Notes: generated from the sequence alone by a model not told the origin. A stretch of 64,000 bases of DNA from an uncultured Planctomycetales bacterium (GCA_964603585.1 CAZRVK010000002.1:243561-307560), one strand, 5' to 3'; positions 7,980-36,497 are shown, counted from the first letter of the stretch. Numbers and translations are program-made.

Positions 7980-8051
7980 GGCGACGTAGCCAAGTGGCAA
8001 GGCAGTTGTCTGCAAAACAACTATACAGCGGTTCGAATCCGCTCGTCGCCT
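7980..8051 (+). tRNA. tRNA-Cys(GCA)
   Basis: Cloverleaf drawn by hand: acceptor GGCGACG/CGTCGCC, 3-bp D stem, anticodon stem GTTGT/ACAAC with loop CTGCAAA, T arm AGCGG-TTCGAAT-CCGCT. Confidence 0.8.
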
Positions 8052-8145: not shown

Positions 8146-8228
8146 GGGCAAGTGGTGGAATGGCATACACGAAGGACTTAAAATCCTTTGGCCGTAAGGT
8201 CGTGAGGGTTCAACTCCCTCCTTGCCCA
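8146..8228 (+). tRNA. tRNA-Leu(TAA), class II with long variable arm
   Basis: Acceptor GGGCAAG/CTTGCCC, anticodon stem AAGGA/TCCTT with loop CTTAAAA, long extra arm, T arm GAGGG-TTCAACT-CCCTC; CCA not encoded. Confidence 0.75.
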
Positions 8229-8306: not shown

Positions 8307-8383
8307 GGGCTCATAGCTCAGTTGGTTAGAGCGTTGCGTTGACATCGCAAAGGTCTGAGGTTCAAGTCCTCATGGGCCCACCA
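8307..8383 (+). tRNA. tRNA-Val(GAC)
   Basis: GGGCTCATAGCTCAGTTGGTTAGAGC...TTGCG-TTGACAT-CGCAA...GAGGTTCAAGTCCTCATGGGCCCACCA; CCA encoded. Confidence 0.8.
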
Positions 8384-16884: not shown

Positions 16885-18972
16885 ATGAAATTTACTTATA
16901 ATTGGCTCAAGGATTTTGTAGAAATAAATATTCCTCCCTCTCGATTAGCGGATAAATTGACCATGGCCGGGATCGAGGTCGGCTCGATCCAAGAAAAGGA
17001 GGGGGATTTTGTTTTTGAAATAGAGATCACCTCTAACCGTCCGGACTGGTTGAGCGTGATCGGCATTGCCCGGGAAATCGCTGCACTCACGGGGAATAAA
17101 ATAAAAGTATCCGGGTCACAAAGCCAGAAGATCACAAAGGCTCAAGGGCCGAATGGCCGAATGGCAAAGAGCAACCACCTGTTAGAGATTAAAATAGAGG
17201 ATAAAGAAGATTGCCCTTTATATACCGCTAAGATCATTCGTGATGTAAAAATAGGGCCTTCTCCGGACTGGATGAGAAAAAGGCTGGAATTAGTTGACTG
17301 CCGCAGTATCAATAACGCGGTAGATATCACCAACTATATCCTGTTTACGTATGGTGAACCTTTGCATGCCTTTGATTTGGATAAATTATTTATGTGCCAG
17401 GGGGTTAGAGTTCCGCCGGATCAAGGGCAGATTATCGTCCGAAGAGCCAAGGGCGGAGAGAAAATAGTTACTATTGACGGGCAAGAAAAACAGTTAGACA
17501 AGGACATTTTAGTGATCGCTAATTCCTGCGGGCCGGTCGCGATTGCCGGGGTGATGGGGGGTAAAGACAGTGAAGTTACGGTCAATACAAGAAATATCCT
17601 TTTAGAAGCGGCCATATTCAATCCGGTAGTTATACGTCAGGGAAGGCAAAAATTAGGGATGCAATCGGATGCCTCTTACCGCTTTGAAAGGGGAGTAGAT
17701 ACCGAAACTGTCAGGGTATCATCGTATTTGGCGGCAAATCAGCTCGAAGAATTGGCCGGAGGAAAGATTATTTTATCCAAGGATGCCGGCGGCATAAAAG
17801 CGGGATCCAGGAGTATAAGATTAAATACGGACTCGGCGGCTAAAGTCCTGGGGGTAAATATCCCTTCGGCAAAAATCAGATCCATTTTGCACGGCCTGGG
17901 ATTTAAGGCGGTAAAGAAAGGGAAAACCGGTTTTATGGTTGGCGTGCCGGCTTACCGGCAGGATGTATCCGGTGAGATTGATTTGATCGAGGAGGTAGCC
18001 CGTATCTATGGATATGACCAGGTACCTTCTACTATCCCAGCGGTAAAACCGCAATTGAATATTTCCGGCAATAGCCACAAGATATCACTGATAAAAGATA
18101 TTCTTCTTGGTCTTGGTTTGAATGAAACGATCACTTATACCTTAATCGACCGGGGATCCCTCAAGGATTTTGCATTGTCGTTCCCGTCTCTTATTGAAGT
18201 GCAAAACCCGCAAAGCAAAGAACAGGAGGTTTTAAGGCCGAGTATAATCCCTTCTCTCGCCAGGTGTGTAGCTTTTAACCTTAACCAGAAACAGAATTAT
18301 ATTAATATTTTTGAGGTTGCCAAAATATTCAGAGGAGTTTCCGCTGGTGTTCCTGAAGAAACACTGGTTTTAGGGCTTGCTTTATGCGGAGAGAAAGATA
18401 CGCTTCTGGAAAACGGTTTGGTAAAAGATAAAATGGGCGTTTTGCATGTAAAAGGCATAATAGAAACACTTTTTTTGCGGCTGGGAATTAATGGGTTCTC
18501 CTTCTTGCTGGATAATCCTCAACAGGCAAGGTTGATTTTAGGAGGTGAGGACATGGGGGGTATCCTGAAATTAAATAAGAATATCCTCGCCTCTTTGGAT
18601 ATAAAGAACAAGGATGTAGTGGTAGCGGAGTTTTTCTTGGATAAAATAATACCCAAAATAAACTTAAATAAGAAGTTTATCCCTTTGCCGATTTACCCGG
18701 GAATAGCCAGGGATATTAGTTTGCTGCTTAAGAGCGAAGTTCAAGTGGAGGATGTGTTAAAGATAATCAAAGAAAACGCCGTATCATTATTGCAGCAGGT
18801 AAACGTGGTAGATATTTATAAGGGCAAGCAAATTCCTTCCGGGTTCAAGAATTTGACGGTTTCCTGCCTGTATCGTTCAGACGACCGCACTTTAACTGAA
18901 GAGGAGATAACTCCCGTACACGCCAAGGTCTCGGCTTCATTGGTCGAGAGATTAGGGGCTCAAATCCGGTAA
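16885..18972 (+). CDS. pheT: phenylalanine--tRNA ligase beta subunit (short form, 695 aa)
   Basis: tRNA-binding N-terminus, B3/4 and B5 domains, FDX-ACB C-terminus; follows pheS. Confidence 0.85.
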   Translation: MKFTYNWLKDFVEINIPPSRLADKLTMAGIEVGSIQEKEGDFVFEIEITSNRPDWLSVIGIAREIAALTGNKIKVSGSQSQKITKAQGPNGRMAKSNHLLEIKIEDKEDCPLYTAKIIRDVKIGPSPDWMRKRLELVDCRSINNAVDITNYILFTYGEPLHAFDLDKLFMCQGVRVPPDQGQIIVRRAKGGEKIVTIDGQEKQLDKDILVIANSCGPVAIAGVMGGKDSEVTVNTRNILLEAAIFNPVVIRQGRQKLGMQSDASYRFERGVDTETVRVSSYLAANQLEELAGGKIILSKDAGGIKAGSRSIRLNTDSAAKVLGVNIPSAKIRSILHGLGFKAVKKGKTGFMVGVPAYRQDVSGEIDLIEEVARIYGYDQVPSTIPAVKPQLNISGNSHKISLIKDILLGLGLNETITYTLIDRGSLKDFALSFPSLIEVQNPQSKEQEVLRPSIIPSLARCVAFNLNQKQNYINIFEVAKIFRGVSAGVPEETLVLGLALCGEKDTLLENGLVKDKMGVLHVKGIIETLFLRLGINGFSFLLDNPQQARLILGGEDMGGILKLNKNILASLDIKNKDVVVAEFFLDKIIPKINLNKKFIPLPIYPGIARDISLLLKSEVQVEDVLKIIKENAVSLLQQVNVVDIYKGKQIPSGFKNLTVSCLYRSDDRTLTEEEITPVHAKVSASLVERLGAQIR

Positions 18973-19022
18973 AGTATCTCCGGGTTGGTTGACAACCGTT
19001 TGAGATGTGCTATACTTTTTTA

Positions 19023-19210
19023 GCAAGGAAAAAGCACTTTGTAAAATATTCCCTGCCGTGTTCGTGAGGAGTTTGATGATTGGTGATCCAACACCAATAT
19101 CTTGGAAGCCCGACTTCCTCGGCGCTTCGGCGTCCTGGAGAAGCTTCCACCTGAAACCAAATCGGTTCAGCCAATCATCTCTAACGGCACAGCGCGGGGA
19201 ATTTTTTTTG
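19023..19210 (+). ncRNA. candidate structured small RNA (identity unresolved; 6S-like or other), non-coding
   Basis: Near-consensus promoter TTGACA(18989-18994)-16 nt-TATACT(19011-19016). About 185-nt GC-rich segment with a 5'/3' closing stem (CCCUGCCGUG / ACGGCA..GGGG), nested helix GGAAGC...GGCGC-UUCG-GCGUCC...GCUUCC, hairpins AUUGGUG/CACCAAU and CUGAACC/GGUUCAG, ending in a U8 tract at 19203-19210. The overlapping ORFs in the track have no recognisable domains. Confidence 0.4.
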
Positions 19211-19214
19211 TCCC

Positions 19215-20525
19215 ATGGACCTTTTTAGCGAAAAAAACAATCCCGGTAACAAATCATTTCCGCTTGCGGTGCGGATGCGTCCCGCCACTCTCGATGAGTA
19301 TGTTGGGCAGGAACATATTATCGGCAAAGGCAAACTTCTTCGCCGGGCAATTGATGCCGACCGGGTCAGCTCGCTTATTTTATTTGGTCCTCCGGGAGTA
19401 GGTAAGACCTCTTTGGCGGTTACCATAGCTCAAGTCAGCCAGGCCAATTACGTTTCTATCAATGCCACTACCTCCAACGTAGAAGAGATAAGAAAAGTTA
19501 TTGCCCAGGCAAAACATATTAAATCCTCCGCGAATACTAAAACCATACTTTTTATAGACGAAATCCATCGTTTTAATAAAGCCCAGCAGGATGTGCTCTT
19601 GCCGGATATAGAAGACGGAAACCCTGTTTTGATAGGGGCTACTGTACACAACCCGTATTTTGTCCTGGTATCTCCTTTATTGTCCCGGTCTTTGGTGTGT
19701 GAATTAAAAGCTTTGAAGGAAGAAGAAATACTTATTATCTTGAACAGGGCCTTAAAAGATAAAGATAGGGGTTTAGGCAATCTAAAGATAAAAGCGGATT
19801 ATCAGGCGCTTCTTTTCTTGGCAAAGACCTGTGAAGGAGATGCCCGCAGGGCGCTCAATGCCTTAGAGGTCGGGGTTTTGACTACCCAGGCCCAGGAAAA
19901 CGGGGTAATTAAATTCGATGTTAATGCCGCCGAGGAATCAATCCAGAAGAAGGCCGTGGTGTATGACAGGGATGAAGATGCGCATTATGATACGGCCTCT
20001 GCATTCATCAAGTCTATGCGCGGCTCGGATCCGGATGCTGCGGTATACTGGATGGCCAAGATGCTTTATGCCGGAGAAGATCCCCGTTTTATTGCCCGCA
20101 GGATTTGTATTTTAGCTGCCGAGGATGTAGGTAATGCCGATCCTTTGGCACTCGTTTTGGCTAATGCGGCTTTACAGGTTGCAGAATTTGTGGGGATGCC
20201 GGAAGCGCGCATTCCTTTGGCGCAGGCATGTATTTATGTGGCCTGTGCTCCTAAATCCAATGCGAGTTATCTGGCGATTGACAAGGCTTATGCGGATATT
20301 GAAAATGGCCGGGTCCAGGAAGTGCCGGATCATTTAAAGGATGCCAACTACTCTGGCGCAAAGAAATTAGGCCATGGCGAGGGGTATAAATACGCCCATG
20401 ATTTCCCCGGCCATTATGTAAAACAGAAATATACCCGTAAAGCCGTCCGTTACTATGAGCCTACAGATGTTGGCCATGAAGCAAAGATCAAACAACGATT
20501 AAGCGCCATACGCAAAACCCCCTGA
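19215..20525 (+). CDS. rarA: replication-associated recombination protein A (RarA/MgsA AAA+ ATPase)
   Basis: MRPATLDEYVGQEHIIGKGKLLRRAI...LFGPPGVGKTSLA, MgsA C-terminal domain. Confidence 0.85.
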   Translation: MDLFSEKNNPGNKSFPLAVRMRPATLDEYVGQEHIIGKGKLLRRAIDADRVSSLILFGPPGVGKTSLAVTIAQVSQANYVSINATTSNVEEIRKVIAQAKHIKSSANTKTILFIDEIHRFNKAQQDVLLPDIEDGNPVLIGATVHNPYFVLVSPLLSRSLVCELKALKEEEILIILNRALKDKDRGLGNLKIKADYQALLFLAKTCEGDARRALNALEVGVLTTQAQENGVIKFDVNAAEESIQKKAVVYDRDEDAHYDTASAFIKSMRGSDPDAAVYWMAKMLYAGEDPRFIARRICILAAEDVGNADPLALVLANAALQVAEFVGMPEARIPLAQACIYVACAPKSNASYLAIDKAYADIENGRVQEVPDHLKDANYSGAKKLGHGEGYKYAHDFPGHYVKQKYTRKAVRYYEPTDVGHEAKIKQRLSAIRKTP

Positions 20526-21290: not shown

Positions 21291-21708
21291 TTTGAATTAC
21301 AGCGATAAGGTTATGGATCATTTCTTGCATCCGCGTAATGTCGGGGAAATATCGGATGCCAGCGGAGTAGGTACGGTGGGGAACCCCATTTGTGGCGATG
21401 TGATGAAAATGTACCTGAAAGTAGATAAAGATATTATTATAGACGCGAAGTTTAAAACTTTTGGCTGTGGCGCGGCAATCAGCACAAGTTCCATGGTTAC
21501 TGAAATGGTAAAGGGGAAAACCATTGAGGAAGCTTTGCAGATCACCAATAAAGCTGTGGCGGAAGCCTTAGGTGGTTTGCCGGCAGTCAAGCTGCATTGT
21601 TCTGTTCTGGCAGAGCAGGCATTACGTTCTGCCCTGGCAGATTTCTACAGGAAAACTGGACGTGACCCCAGTTTATTCGAACCCAAAAATGATGTTTGCG
21701 GGCATTAA
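21283..21708 (+). CDS. iscU: IscU/NifU-type Fe-S cluster assembly scaffold
   Basis: YSDKVMDHFLHPRNVGE...GNPICGDVMK...FGCGAAISTSS...LHCSVLA: three conserved Cys of NifU_N; GTG start. Confidence 0.8.
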   Translation: MGDLNYSDKVMDHFLHPRNVGEISDASGVGTVGNPICGDVMKMYLKVDKDIIIDAKFKTFGCGAAISTSSMVTEMVKGKTIEEALQITNKAVAEALGGLPAVKLHCSVLAEQALRSALADFYRKTGRDPSLFEPKNDVCGH

Positions 21709-22274
21709 AACATATGACTCAAGGTGCAGGATTGACAAAAGCCATGATTCGTAGTAAAATTTTGGAAAGGTTAAAATCACATAAGGAGGAAGACCGAAAG
21801 ACCAAAAGTAGAAATATTAAGAACAAGCTTTTCCGGACTTCGATTTTTAAAAAGGCCAAAAGAGTGATGTTTTATATCTCTTTTGGTGGCGAGGTTTATA
21901 CGCAAGAGATGATAAAAGCAGCAAGAAAATTAGGTAAGATTGTGACAGTTCCTGTTTGCCAGCACAATAGAATAATTATTAAACCCTGTATTTTCACCCC
22001 TGAAGGTAAGCTTATGAAAGGGCCTTATGGGGTATGTGAGCCTGCGGTAAAGAAATTTCTGGATCCGCGTGATCTGGATTTAGTGATCGTGCCCGGATTA
22101 GCTTTTGATAAAAAGGGCAACCGTCTTGGCCGAGGCAAGGGTTGTTATGACCGGTTCTTGAAAAATCTTGGCGAAAATGTTCATTCTATTGGGCTGGCTT
22201 ATGGTTTCCAGATCTTACCTTCTCTTCCCGTCACCAAAAACGATATAGGCGTGGATAAATTAATTTACGCTTAA
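21696..22274 (+). CDS. 5-formyltetrahydrofolate cyclo-ligase
   Basis: MTHFS-like: KKGNRLGRGKGCYDRFL, VPGLAFDKKG. Confidence 0.75.
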   Translation: MRALKHMTQGAGLTKAMIRSKILERLKSHKEEDRKTKSRNIKNKLFRTSIFKKAKRVMFYISFGGEVYTQEMIKAARKLGKIVTVPVCQHNRIIIKPCIFTPEGKLMKGPYGVCEPAVKKFLDPRDLDLVIVPGLAFDKKGNRLGRGKGCYDRFLKNLGENVHSIGLAYGFQILPSLPVTKNDIGVDKLIYA

Positions 22275-22390: not shown

Positions 22391-23947
22391 ATGTCAAGCT
22401 TAGTGATAATATCCATTGTAGTGGCTGTAATTTCGCTGGTTGCCGGGTATATTTTACGTAAATTCATCGCGGAAAAGAAACTGCAGGACGCGGACACACA
22501 AGCAAAGAATATTCTGGAGCAGGCAAAAAAAGAGGCTCAAGATAAACGCCGAGAGGCAGAATTGGAAGGAAAGGACCTTCTGTATCGTATGCGCCAGGAT
22601 TTTGAACGGCAAACCCAGGAGCGTAGGCAGGAGATTGCCAATTCCGAGAAAAGGTTGACTCAAAAAGAGGAGAATATTGACCGCAGGTTGGATCTTTTGG
22701 AACGCAAAGAGAAGGAAATAGAACAAAGGCAATCGGAGGCCAAAAGGCAGGAGGATGTTTTAAAATCCAAAGATGCCCAGATGAACGCGTTGTTAGCCGA
22801 AGAAAAGGAGAGGCTGCAGAAAATATCGTCTTTATCCGCAGAAGAGGCTAAACAAATCCTCTTGAATCGGTTAAATGAAGAGTTGAGCAACGAGAAGGCC
22901 GTGGTGATCAAGAAGCAGGAAGAGGATTTGCGCCTGACGTCCGAGAAAAAAGCCCGGGAGATCATTAGCCTGGCTATTCAAAGGTGTGCCGCCGATCATT
23001 CGGTGGAAACCACCGTCAGCGTAGTAATGCTGCCGAGTGATGAAATGAAAGGCCGGGTAATCGGCAGAGAAGGCAGGAATATCCGGGCTTTTGAAATGGC
23101 CACGGGGGTAGATGTTATTATTGACGATACCCCGGAGGCGGTTACGCTTTCATGTTTTGATACCGTGCGACGTGAGATCGCCCGCATGGCTTTAGAAAAA
23201 CTCATCTCTGACGGCAGGATCCACCCTGGGCGCATCGAAGAGGTGGTAGAAAAGGCTAAGAAGGAGATGGATGAGAAAATACGGGAAGAAGGTGAACGGG
23301 CGGCATTCGATTCCACAGTGAATGGATTGCACCCGGAGATCATTAAATTGTTAGGACGGCTTAAATATCGTACCAGTTTTGGACAAAATGCCTTACAGCA
23401 TTCAAAGGAAGTATCTTTTCTTATGGGGGTAATGGCTTCCGAGATGGGATTGGATTTTAAGCTTTCTCGGCGTATCGGGCTTTTGCATGACTTGGGCAAG
23501 GCAATCGATCATCAAGTCGAAGGTACCCATGCCAAGATCGGAGCAGAATTAGCGAAGAAATTCAATGAATCCGCTGAAGTGTTGGAGGCGATCGAGGCGC
23601 ATCACGAAGAGATCGAAGCCAAAACCTTTTATTCGGTTCTTACGGTTGCTGCTGACGCCATTAGTGCCGCCAGGCCCGGGGCTAGACGAGAAACACTGGA
23701 AACTTATATTAAAAGGCTGGAAAACCTGGAGTCAATTGCCAATCAGTTCAAAGGCGTAGAGAAAACTTACGCCATTCAGGCTGGCCGTGAGATCCGAGTG
23801 ATTGTCCAGCCAGAAAAGATCTCTGACCCAGACGCCATTAACCTGGCCAGGGATATCCGTAAGAAGATCGAAGAAGGGATGGAGTATCCGGGTCAGATCA
23901 AAGTCACCGTGATCAGGGAAACGCGGGCGATAGAGTACGCCAAATAA
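22391..23947 (+). CDS. rny: ribonuclease Y
   Basis: N-terminal TM, long coiled coil, KH domain (GRVIGREGRNIRAFE), HD domain (LLHDLGKAIDH). Confidence 0.9.
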   Translation: MSSLVIISIVVAVISLVAGYILRKFIAEKKLQDADTQAKNILEQAKKEAQDKRREAELEGKDLLYRMRQDFERQTQERRQEIANSEKRLTQKEENIDRRLDLLERKEKEIEQRQSEAKRQEDVLKSKDAQMNALLAEEKERLQKISSLSAEEAKQILLNRLNEELSNEKAVVIKKQEEDLRLTSEKKAREIISLAIQRCAADHSVETTVSVVMLPSDEMKGRVIGREGRNIRAFEMATGVDVIIDDTPEAVTLSCFDTVRREIARMALEKLISDGRIHPGRIEEVVEKAKKEMDEKIREEGERAAFDSTVNGLHPEIIKLLGRLKYRTSFGQNALQHSKEVSFLMGVMASEMGLDFKLSRRIGLLHDLGKAIDHQVEGTHAKIGAELAKKFNESAEVLEAIEAHHEEIEAKTFYSVLTVAADAISAARPGARRETLETYIKRLENLESIANQFKGVEKTYAIQAGREIRVIVQPEKISDPDAINLARDIRKKIEEGMEYPGQIKVTVIRETRAIEYAK

Positions 23948-34766: not shown

Positions 34767-36497
34767 TGCCCTGTCGTCTAATCGGTAGGACTTCAGATTC
34801 TGGATCTGACTATCATGGTTCGAGTCCATGCGGGGCAGCCATTGTTGACAACTATCCGAAACTCCGGATAGTGATGCAGTGGGAACAAGCGCCTTACAGT
34901 CTTCTGTAGGGCGCTTTTCCTTTGTAGAGGCTATTTCGCTAGGGAGGATGCCTTCAAGCGGCTCTTCGATATACATATTGATTACCAGCCTGTCGCTATA
35001 GACGTAAATGTCCTTGATCAGGGCATGTATAAGGCTTTTCTGGGCTTCCGGAGGGGCGTCTTCAAGGTGCTGTATGGCAAAGTTCATGCTGCGGTATACG
35101 AGCTCGCCGGAACAGGCGTTTATGCTGGCAACTCTCTTTTGCGCCTGCAGCTTGTCTATTTCGTCTTCCAGTTTTGCAATCTCCATTTCCAACTCATTCA
35201 TTTTGTCTTTATAAGTGGAGCCTTTGGTGACTGTGTTGCCCATGGCTAATTCCAGCAGTTTATTGGCTTGGAAGCGGAAGCCGTTTAGCTTTGTCTCTCT
35301 TTCTTTTAAGTCGGTCTCTATCTTTTCAAGCTTTGCCTGCGACTCAAGCATGGCGTCTCCCAGGGCCTTTATGATAATGCCCTTGTCCTCAGATGCCCGC
35401 CTAAAATAGTCGATTATAGCTTTGTCAAAAGTAGTTGCGGAGATGCGTGTTGCTTTGCATCCCAGAGCCTGCTTGGAGCGGCTGCACTCATAATAAAAAA
35501 ACTTTCTTCTGTCTCTACCGCCTGAAAAATTGCAGACCATATGGCTTCCGCAGTCGCCGCATCGGAGAATACCGGCGAGGAGGTATTCATAGAATCTTTC
35601 TTTCTGCACAAAGTTGTGGCCGGGAAGCTTGGCGCTCAATATTTTGTTGGCCCGCTCCCAGAGCTTCTCATCGACAATCGCCGGGTGATTGCCTTTGTGG
35701 TATTCTCCGCTGTATTGAATATAGCCTTTGTAAAAAGGATTTTTTAATATCCTTGAAATAACCTGCCTGCGCCATTCCTTGCCGTTTAGAGTTTTTAGCC
35801 CGCGCCTGTGAAGCTCAAGGCCTACCTGCGTAAGCGACCGGTTATCCGCGGCCATCTCCCAGATGATTTTAAGATGCGTAGTTATTTTTTCATCAGGAAC
35901 AATTTTATGCGGCTGGCGGCCGTTAGGAAGCGGCTCTCCGTCTGGTATAAGCTTATATCCATAAGGCAGCATCCCGCCGACCCATTTGCCCTGGCGCACT
36001 CTGGCAATAGCGGATGCTTTCACGCGCTCGCCGGTGAGCTCCCGCTCAAAGGCTGACAAAATCCCAAGTATGCCAATTACTACTCTACCTATGGCGGTTG
36101 AGCTGTCCAAGTTTTCTCTTACCGAGACGAAATCGATTTCCTTTTCTCTGAATAGATCAATAAGCCAGTAGAGGTCCCGGGTATTGCGGGTCAAGCGGTC
36201 AAGGCGGAAGAAGATTATTCCGTCAAATGGGGCGGTTTCTCTACGCACGCGGTCGATAATCATCTGGATGCCGGGCCGGTTGAGATCCTTGCCGGAATAT
36301 CCGTCATCGTCTATTCGGCCTTTTTTGCCTATCTTGGCAAGGTCATATCCAAAAGCGTCCAGCAGATTCTTGCAGTGATAGGCCTGGGAATCCAGGGTGG
36401 TAAAATCTCCCTGGGCCTGGTCATCAGTAGAGCAGCGGGTATAGATTACATAGCGTTTTTTGTTATTTGCATTATTTGTTTTGGCATTCATAATCAT
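34752..36497 (-). CDS. large serine recombinase (phage integrase)
   Basis: N-terminal resolvase catalytic domain (YVIYTRCSTDDQ), recombinase domain, zinc ribbon (CGDCGSHMVC...YYECSRS), coiled coil. Likely start MIMNAK at 36497; the track ORF extends to 36620. C-terminal codons overlap tRNA-Gln antisense. Confidence 0.8.
   Translation of the reverse strand: MIMNAKTNNANNKKRYVIYTRCSTDDQAQGDFTTLDSQAYHCKNLLDAFGYDLAKIGKKGRIDDDGYSGKDLNRPGIQMIIDRVRRETAPFDGIIFFRLDRLTRNTRDLYWLIDLFREKEIDFVSVRENLDSSTAIGRVVIGILGILSAFERELTGERVKASAIARVRQGKWVGGMLPYGYKLIPDGEPLPNGRQPHKIVPDEKITTHLKIIWEMAADNRSLTQVGLELHRRGLKTLNGKEWRRQVISRILKNPFYKGYIQYSGEYHKGNHPAIVDEKLWERANKILSAKLPGHNFVQKERFYEYLLAGILRCGDCGSHMVCNFSGGRDRRKFFYYECSRSKQALGCKATRISATTFDKAIIDYFRRASEDKGIIIKALGDAMLESQAKLEKIETDLKERETKLNGFRFQANKLLELAMGNTVTKGSTYKDKMNELEMEIAKLEDEIDKLQAQKRVASINACSGELVYRSMNFAIQHLEDAPPEAQKSLIHALIKDIYVYSDRLVINMYIEEPLEGILPSEIASTKEKRPTEDCKALVPTASLSGVSDSCQQWLPRMDSNHDSQIQNLKSYRLDDRAKLFK
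34767..34841 (+). tRNA. tRNA-Gln(CTG)
   Basis: U1-A72 acceptor TGCCCTG/CGGGGCA, D arm GTCT-AATCGGTAG-GGAC, anticodon stem TCAGA/TCTGA with loop TTCTGGA, T arm CATGG-TTCGAGT-CCATG, then GCCA. Confidence 0.8.

Follow-up and report, generated by a model that had tools for sequence, protein, structure and literature searches.

Evidence for a compact 6S (SsrS) RNA gene between pheT and rarA in an uncultured bacterium

6S (SsrS) RNA mimics the open promoter and thereby holds back the housekeeping RNA polymerase. A hallmark of the family is the presence of two conserved G-C pairs which close the central bubble on each side (PMC4064990). In E. coli 6S RNA the start of the product RNA (pRNA) has been established experimentally at U44 (PMC9670815), and for RNAs of this type release through a hairpin on the 3' side of the bubble has been described (PMC8876501, PMC9670815). 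In Bacillus subtilis 6S-1 the pRNA starts with GTP (PMC3753640) and the primary transcript, pre-6S-1, carries an 11-nt leader (PMC10578484), and GG at pRNA positions 4 and 5 has been noted as conserved beyond the lactic acid bacteria (LAB; PMC8414754). The gene is linked to rarA in the lactic acid bacteria and B. subtilis (PMC8414754) and to ygfA in the Proteobacteria and some Firmicutes (PMC9130861). Among the papers listed by a broad literature query on 6S RNA in the Omnitrophota, Verrucomicrobia or Planctomycetes none mentions 6S RNA, which is weak evidence of absence.

The segment described here lies on the plus strand of a 64-kb stretch of DNA (the window) between pheT and rarA, a location given in the original prediction and confirmed by the Pfam domains of both proteins. 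That prediction was of a structured small RNA, with 6S RNA as the first-named guess and a novel RNA among the alternatives; the guess is borne out by a match to RF00013 above the gathering score and by compensatory changes, and a novel RNA is superfluous given that match. We consider it highly probable (about 0.93) that positions 19047-19204 of the plus strand are the ssrS gene for 6S RNA, and the segment is a further member of a well-known and widespread small-RNA family.

The RNA shares with its E. coli and gamma-proteobacterial counterparts a rod composed of a closing stem, downstream helix, central bubble and apical arm, the conserved UGAnCC, CCACCU and GGUUCA motifs, and a 3'-bubble hairpin to which the downstream helix contributes its 3' strand (PMC8876501, PMC9670815). 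As with E. coli ssrS, only a few nucleotides separate the RNA gene from the protein gene behind it, which has the same orientation, and a 5-formyl-THF cyclo-ligase gene lies downstream; however, the latter is adjacent in E. coli, whereas in the window rarA and the genes for a DUF5981 and a NifU protein intervene. The window RNA is also shorter (158 nt against 184 nt) with an apical arm reduced by about 24 nt, its predicted release hairpin has 7 bp where that of E. coli has 9 bp, and its predicted start base is C (a GTP start), unlike the U44 of E. coli (an ATP start).

Other features are those of B. subtilis 6S-1 (bsrA) and the LAB 6S RNAs, namely the linkage to rarA (PMC8414754) and a GTP-initiated pRNA with GG at positions 4 and 5 (predicted here), and in the case of 6S-1 a leader on the primary transcript (predicted here at about 24 nt, against 11 nt; PMC10578484) and small bubble hairpins already formed in the free RNA (PMC8876501). 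The order differs, as the window 6S gene abuts rarA from upstream on the same strand, whereas rarA is upstream of 6S in LAB and on the opposite strand from it in B. subtilis (PMC8414754), and the predicted rearrangement is nearer to the E. coli-type 3' hairpin than to the 'central bubble collapse helix'. A 6S-like rod is likewise found in Ms1, a structured RNA that binds RNA polymerase (PMC9130861), but the target of Ms1 is the polymerase core, not the holoenzyme, and Ms1 occurs in the Actinobacteria only.

The elements of the locus are as follows, with nucleotide (nt) numbers counted from the first 6S-homologous base:

18989-19016, plus strand: sigma-70-type promoter (11/12 consensus matches and an extended -10 TG)
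19023-19046, plus strand: predicted 5' leader of about 24 nt, from the start site to the first 6S-homologous base
19047-19204, plus strand: 6S/SsrS RNA, the RF00013-homologous part, 158 nt (Rfam match; clade model)
19048-19065, plus strand: closing stem, 5' strand (nt 2-15 and 17-19; Rfam alignment, RNAalifold, pair counts)
19075-19089, plus strand: downstream (P2-like) helix, 5' strand GAUGAUUGG-UGAUCC (nt 29-43), pairing with 19164-19179
19080-19097, plus strand: 5'-bubble hairpin UUGGUG/CACCAA, 6 bp, an alternative conformation (minimum-energy fold)
19090-19103, plus strand: central bubble, 5' side AACACCAAUAUCUU (nt 44-57; Rfam alignment)
19104-19148, plus strand: apical (upstream) arm (nt 58-102; Rfam alignment, pair counts)
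19149-19163, plus strand: central bubble, 3' side, with a conserved CCACCUG motif (nt 103-117; Rfam alignment, conservation)
19151-19170, plus strand: 3'-bubble hairpin CUGAA.CC/GGUUCAG, 7 bp, an alternative conformation (minimum-energy fold)
19164-19179, plus strand: downstream helix, 3' strand GGUUCA-G-CCAAUCAUC (nt 118-133; Rfam alignment, pair counts)
19184-19202, plus strand: closing stem, 3' strand ACGGCAC-ag-CGCGGGGAAU (nt 138-156; Rfam alignment, RNAalifold, pair counts)
19202-19209, plus strand: U8 tract directly 3' of the closing stem (sequence; conserved in relatives)

Family match, relatives and conserved structure

The whole window was scanned against Rfam 15 at gathering thresholds, which gave five matches: four tRNAs and RF00013 (6S/SsrS). 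An Rfam scan had been proposed as the check on the segment, and it proved positive for 6S at 19047-19204 on the plus strand: the match scores 56.7 bits (E 1.3e-8; gathering score 46.4) and spans the full model, positions 1-187. This score exceeds the threshold by only about 10 bits; for comparison E. coli ssrS, the sequence of which was confirmed as the annotated gene in 5426/5426 genomes and aligned to RF00013, scores 139.8 bits. A covariance model built for the clade gives 140.2 bits at the same place, its sole match in the 64 kb, and found no second 6S copy in the window or in any relative locus. A permissive Rfam scan of both strands of 18900-19350 (E up to 10) returned no 6S match on the minus strand and no other family below E = 1, the next-best families standing at E 1.4 and 2.3, far below their own gathering scores; riboswitches were rejected on this basis. 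SRP RNA, for which no motifs could be recognised originally, has no match in the window at the gathering score or in 18900-19350 up to E 10, and the same permissive scan gave no match to Ms1 RNA, the host lineage being Omnitrophota and not actinobacterial.

For comparison 80 rarA loci were retrieved from species-representative genomes with the RarA protein of the window. Nearly all of its closest relatives (59-79% identity) are labelled Candidatus Omnitrophota, with MAGs labelled Verrucomicrobiota and Planctomycetota further down the match list; judged by this protein, the host lineage of the window is Candidatus Omnitrophota. An RF00013 match above threshold stands just upstream of rarA and on its strand in 59/80 loci, and the clade model, built from 33 Omnitrophota sequences, finds 6S in 69 of the 80, with plus-strand scores far above those of the minus strand (138.5 against 40.1 bits in locus L007). 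In two loci (L001 1339-1472 and L038 1351-1484) the 6S RNA is only 134 nt long, a full-model match above the gathering score with an apical arm even shorter than that of the 158-nt window form.

Two descriptive points of the original prediction hold in part. A length of about 185 nt is correct as the distance from promoter to U-tract, but the 6S-homologous part is the 158 nt given above; and the description as a GC-rich segment in an AT-rich genome is weak, as the segment has 52.5% G+C and the window 45.6%, and the beginning of the neighbouring rarA gene matches the segment in G+C content.

The RNA folds well. The 173 nt of 19040-19212 reach -64.1 kcal/mol (z = -4.1), a value matched by 0/200 dinucleotide shuffles, and contain the long closing stem of 5' and 3' ends that had been described. 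However, the minus strand also folds well (z = -3.4), and folding energy by itself is therefore no proof of strand or of function and was rejected as a strand test. The plus strand is set instead by the covariance models, by conserved G-U pairs and by the orientation of the promoter and U-tract. The pair U8-G150 of the closing stem is U-G in 32/33 sequences and two other positions alternate between G-C and G-U, a pattern incompatible with the opposite strand.

In the Rfam-type structure the rod of 158 nt consists of the closing stem, the 5' strand of which pairs with 19184-19190 and 19193-19202, a downstream helix with 14/15 standard pairs, a bubble with both of its strands unpaired (14 nt and 15 nt), and the apical stem. 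The apical arm is formed by the helices GGAAGC/GCUUCC, UUCC/GGAG and GGCGC-UUCG-GCGUC, the last being the nested helix capped by a UUCG tetraloop (19126-19129) that had been noticed at the outset, and it has 25 nt where the Rfam consensus has 49; the apical part which mimics the -35 element in E. coli may thus be reduced here.

Comparative covariation had also been proposed as a check, and on an alignment not fitted to the structure the 6S fold shows compensatory changes. The 33 sequences were aligned with MAFFT without use of structure and the Rfam-type structure was written out from the window sequence; the alignment fitted with the clade model, which contains minus-strand matches, was excluded from the pair counts. 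RNAalifold recovered the closing stem and the base of the apical stem from the MAFFT alignment and left the centre open. Standard pairs occupy 77.8% of the cells, a share that falls to 40-50% once the 3' partners are displaced by 1-3 columns, and 32/47 pairs have changes on both sides. None of 500 shuffles reached any of five pairing measures, a statistic inflated by phylogenetic signal, as the sequences of the alignment and the clade model are related, and likewise by the derivation of the structure from the window sequence.

Helices 1 and 2, which make up the closing stem, are paired in 84% and 96% of cells, and helices 4 and 5 of the apical arm in 83% and 71%, with changes on both sides in all nine pairs of helix 5. 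In the downstream helix (helix 3) both partners vary in 11/15 pairs. Its six inner pairs are well preserved, the commonest pair being present in 22-33 of the 33 sequences and in 31 and 33 for the two next to the bubble; the outer pairs of this helix are undercounted, because they and the 3'-bubble hairpin are poorly aligned by MAFFT, with several relatives out of register. The family hallmark is present as C42-G119 and C43-G118 on one side of the bubble and G58-C102 and G59-C101 on the other, with counts of 31-33/33. C42, C43, G59, C101 and G118 are invariant and G58, C102 and G119 at least 90% conserved, as are A103, C104 and T106 beside C102, and CCAA at nt 42-45 and the GGUUC of the 3' strand are invariant or nearly so.

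Predicted template and release hairpin

Two further hairpins had been described in addition to the nested helix. Both are present in the minimum-energy fold, but they are alternative conformations and not extra domains, since they compete with the canonical helix beside the bubble. In the isolated RNA both are preferred to the canonical downstream helix, whose 3' strand is taken up by the 3'-bubble hairpin. Equivalents of the 3'-bubble hairpin with other sequences (GUGAAC/GUUCAC, GGUGAA/UUCACC, UAGGACC/GGUUCUA, ACCUG/CAGGU) occur in most of the 33 relatives, and the 5'-bubble hairpin recurs with compensatory changes in about half of them, for example as UUUAUAGAG/CUCUAUAAA in L027 and GUAAA/UUUAC in L026; this comparison, made by folding local segments of each sequence, is qualitative. 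By analogy with E. coli, the 3'-bubble hairpin is predicted to be a release hairpin formed after pRNA synthesis.

The start of the pRNA can be predicted in the same way. E. coli U44 and C46 of the window RNA (coordinate 19092) both align to position 45 of the RF00013 model, and C46 is thus the predicted template base for the first nucleotide. If the RNA behaves as its relatives do, the rod with its open bubble would mimic an open promoter and occupy the active-site cleft of the sigma-70/sigma-A holoenzyme, and transcription would be damped by 6S when nutrients are scarce. On the return of NTPs the polymerase would use 6S as a template, starting at C46, with the 5' strand of the downstream helix as the template region and 5'-GUUGGAUCACCAAUC as the predicted product. 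The pRNA would begin 5'-GUUGGAUCA..., opposite C19092 and complementary to 19078-19092, with GTP as its first nucleotide and GG at positions 4 and 5. Copying of 19075-19089 would free the GGUUCAG strand, which would then close the CUGAA.CC/GGUUCAG hairpin on the 3' side of the bubble, so that the 6S:pRNA complex is released.

It could be argued that the molecule is a diverged 6S-like RNA and not a canonical one, either a poor pRNA template in the manner of B. subtilis 6S-2 or a weak binder of the polymerase. The short apical arm, shortened still further in the two 134-nt forms, the modest Rfam score and the stable bubble hairpins of the free RNA would be in keeping with this, and truncated variants of B. 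subtilis 6S-1 bind about 10-fold more weakly (PMC8876501). However, truncated 6S-1 RNAs complete the whole 6S cycle in vitro (PMC8876501), and the most conserved parts of the RNA in this clade are the G-C pairs flanking the bubble, the CCAAC template and the GGUUCA strand. Furthermore, the predicted start base C implies a GTP start, the efficient case in B. subtilis (PMC3753640), and the clade model finds no second 6S copy in the window or in any locus. We therefore regard divergence of this kind as very unlikely.

Transcription of the RNA and its relation to rarA

The near-consensus sigma-70 promoter of the original prediction stands up well to inspection. TTGACA (18989-18994) and TATACT (19011-19016) are separated by a 16-nt spacer which holds the extended -10 TG at 19008-19009 (TG-c-TATACT), and the start predicted from these elements, near 19022-19024 (A19022/G19023), agrees with the 19023 given there. 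An extended -10 element (TGnTAnnnT) occurs within 80 nt upstream of 6S in 46/54 Omnitrophota-type loci, compared with 6.6% of random 80-nt windows, and most of these sites have TTGAy at -35 spacing. The distance from the -10 element to the 5' end of 6S is at most 8 nt in 16 loci, 9-19 nt in 11, 20-35 nt in 18 and more than 35 nt in one. The -10 box of the window ends 30 nt ahead of the Rfam 5' end and falls in the 20-35 nt class, from which we infer a probable 5' end of the primary transcript near 19023, with the first 24 nt or so forming a leader that is later trimmed. The AAAA at 19043-19046 is able to pair with the U-tract.

At the 3' end the predicted U8 tail was found at 19202-19209. At least five T in the eight positions right behind the closing stem are present in 65/70 6S loci, with a longest run of six or more in 39, and because the tract is so widely kept the closing stem, acting as a hairpin, and the U-tract most likely form an intrinsic terminator at which the transcript probably ends for the most part. 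A terminator scan flagged no 3' end at 6S; its rule requires a loop of 3-8 nt, and the scan missed the site because the 'loop' in this case is the whole RNA.

The Verrucomicrobiota loci are organised differently in some respects. These loci (L054, L056-L058, L060-L065 and L076) are without a TTGACA/TATAAT-type promoter upstream of 6S, and carry instead, 15-25 nt ahead of its 5' end, a conserved gTTCTTTGgAAa motif, which may be a lineage-specific promoter motif. In several of them there is an extra GC-rich hairpin and T-run terminator behind 6S.

In the window the rarA ATG lies at 19215, only 5 nt past the U-tract, and this start is secure since the MDLF N-terminus of RarA is conserved in relatives. 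Between the 6S promoter region and the ATG no promoter-like site was found, the only plus-strand sites being at 18989 and 19020, and rarA is therefore probably transcribed by read-through from 6S in this genome. There is also no run resembling a Shine-Dalgarno sequence 5-10 nt from the ATG (19196-19217). Going upstream, the first purine run stands at 15 nt from the ATG: GGGGAA, which is the 3' strand of the closing stem of 6S. In L002 (1490-1503) and L044 (near 1493-1503) GGGGA stands 8 nt from the ATG, a distance that would suit a Shine-Dalgarno site of rarA, whereas the 15 nt of the window would not. On this arrangement the closing stem might occlude the ribosome-binding site of rarA.

Among the relatives 6S and rarA lie 4-376 nt apart (median 66), and 1238 nt apart in one case. 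The gap is 15 nt or less in 9/69 loci, among them L010 and L044 (both near 1493-1503), which have no U-tract at all. A palindromic insert of about 60 nt, ttattgaggccacaacttacgga...cgacgtaagttgt.tggccgaaattaatcc, is present in this gap in several Omnitrophota MAGs (L005 at about 1281-1400, L011 at about 1382-1450, L012 at about 1362-1430, L016 at about 1368-1440, L026 at about 1385-1450, L029 at about 1354-1420 and L052 at about 1369-1440) and absent from the window; it looks like a REP- or MITE-like repeat common to several genomes.

The proximity of the two genes raises the question of whether the element acts in cis as a leader or attenuator of rarA, its stem and U8 tuning read-through, and is not a free trans-acting RNA. 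The 5-nt distance to the ATG with no promoter-like site in between, the nine short gaps, the two loci without a U-tract and the order 6S-rarA kept in 69/80 loci would all accord with such a role. Against this, the family match is to a full-length 6S RNA, the gaps extend to several hundred nucleotides, some with inserted repeats, and in Verrucomicrobiota loci an independent GC-hairpin terminator stands behind 6S, so that the element is conserved independently of its distance to rarA. Moreover, it is usual for a 6S RNA to share its transcript with the gene behind it: E. coli fau starts 20 nt after ssrS, and in Coxiella ssrS sits within the ygfA 5' UTR (PMC4064990). The possibility that the region is merely a structured 5' UTR of rarA, which had been named as the case that would undo the original prediction, is contradicted by the full-length match and the variable gap, and we consider an exclusively leader-like function highly unlikely. 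A leader role and the role as 6S RNA are not mutually exclusive.

A chance structure or a small protein can be dismissed, for the two overlapping ORFs (19007..19228 and 19102..19401) do exist as described and both strands outdo shuffled sequences in folding, but neither ORF has a Pfam match or is conserved in relatives, stops interrupt all three plus-strand frames in 25/33 relatives with lengths in all three classes modulo 3, and the helices carry compensatory substitutions in addition to the Rfam match.

Gene neighbourhood and meaning of the cluster

The protein and tRNA genes of the window referred to here are:

7980-8051, 8146-8228 and 8307-8380, plus strand: cluster of three tRNAs (Rfam scan)
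16885-18972, plus strand: pheT (B3_4, B5, tRNA_synthFbeta and FDX-ACB domains)
19215-20525, plus strand: rarA/mgsA, AAA+ ATPase (MgsA_C 2.3e-69, AAA_assoc_2, AAA)
21696-22274, plus strand: 5-formyl-THF cyclo-ligase, PF01812 (2.5e-42), of the same family as E. coli fau/ygfA
22391-23947, plus strand: RNase Y (RNase_Y_N, KH and HD domain matches)
34767-34838, plus strand: single tRNA (Rfam scan)

The run of same-strand genes around 6S begins at pheS and is closed by RNase Y, and behind rarA the plus-strand order is a DUF5981 gene, a NifU_N gene, the 5-formyl-THF cyclo-ligase gene and RNase Y. Upstream, pheT precedes 6S in 42/69 loci. RNase Y has been discussed as a possible contributor to the decay of B. 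subtilis 6S-2 (PMC10578484), and its proximity to 6S in the window is probably coincidental.

The cyclo-ligase gene lies about 2.5 kb downstream of 6S in the window. A homologue is present downstream of rarA in at least 34/80 loci, and directly after it in the Verrucomicrobiota, the count being a lower bound as the locus flanks extend for only 1.5 kb (L006, L011, L013, L014, L018, L020, L023, L027, L030, L035-L037, L039, L040, L044, L047, L051, L053, L054, L056-L064, L069, L072, L073, L076, L078 and L080). From gene order in these loci, 6S-rarA-(x)-cyclo-ligase is a conserved same-strand cluster of the Omnitrophota and Verrucomicrobiota, and one which joins both of the known synteny partners of 6S.

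It is tempting to take this further and to suppose that the Omnitrophota/PVC-type 6S RNA is the first element of a 6S-rarA-(x)-cyclo-ligase unit, in which the supply of RarA, and perhaps of the folate enzyme, would need read-through and 6S processing, and that the rarA linkage of the Firmicutes and the ygfA linkage of the Proteobacteria would be remnants of one ancient operon. We offer this as a speculative proposal that is rather unlikely to hold in full. If it were true, an ancient operon would tie a polymerase-sequestering RNA to replication-fork rescue and folate recycling.

Standard Rfam annotation would find the same housekeeping RNA, and the results point only slightly past such routine annotation, in the conserved order of 6S, rarA and cyclo-ligase and in the compact apical arm. 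For the family, they document 6S RNA in the Omnitrophota, an uncultured phylum of ultra-small bacteria, and a compact 6S of about 134-163 nt in which the apical arm is short. The partners reported separately for the Firmicutes (rarA) and the Proteobacteria (5-formyl-THF cyclo-ligase) are here clustered with 6S, and this joint cluster bears on the old question of why 6S RNA is linked to rarA and cyclo-ligase genes.
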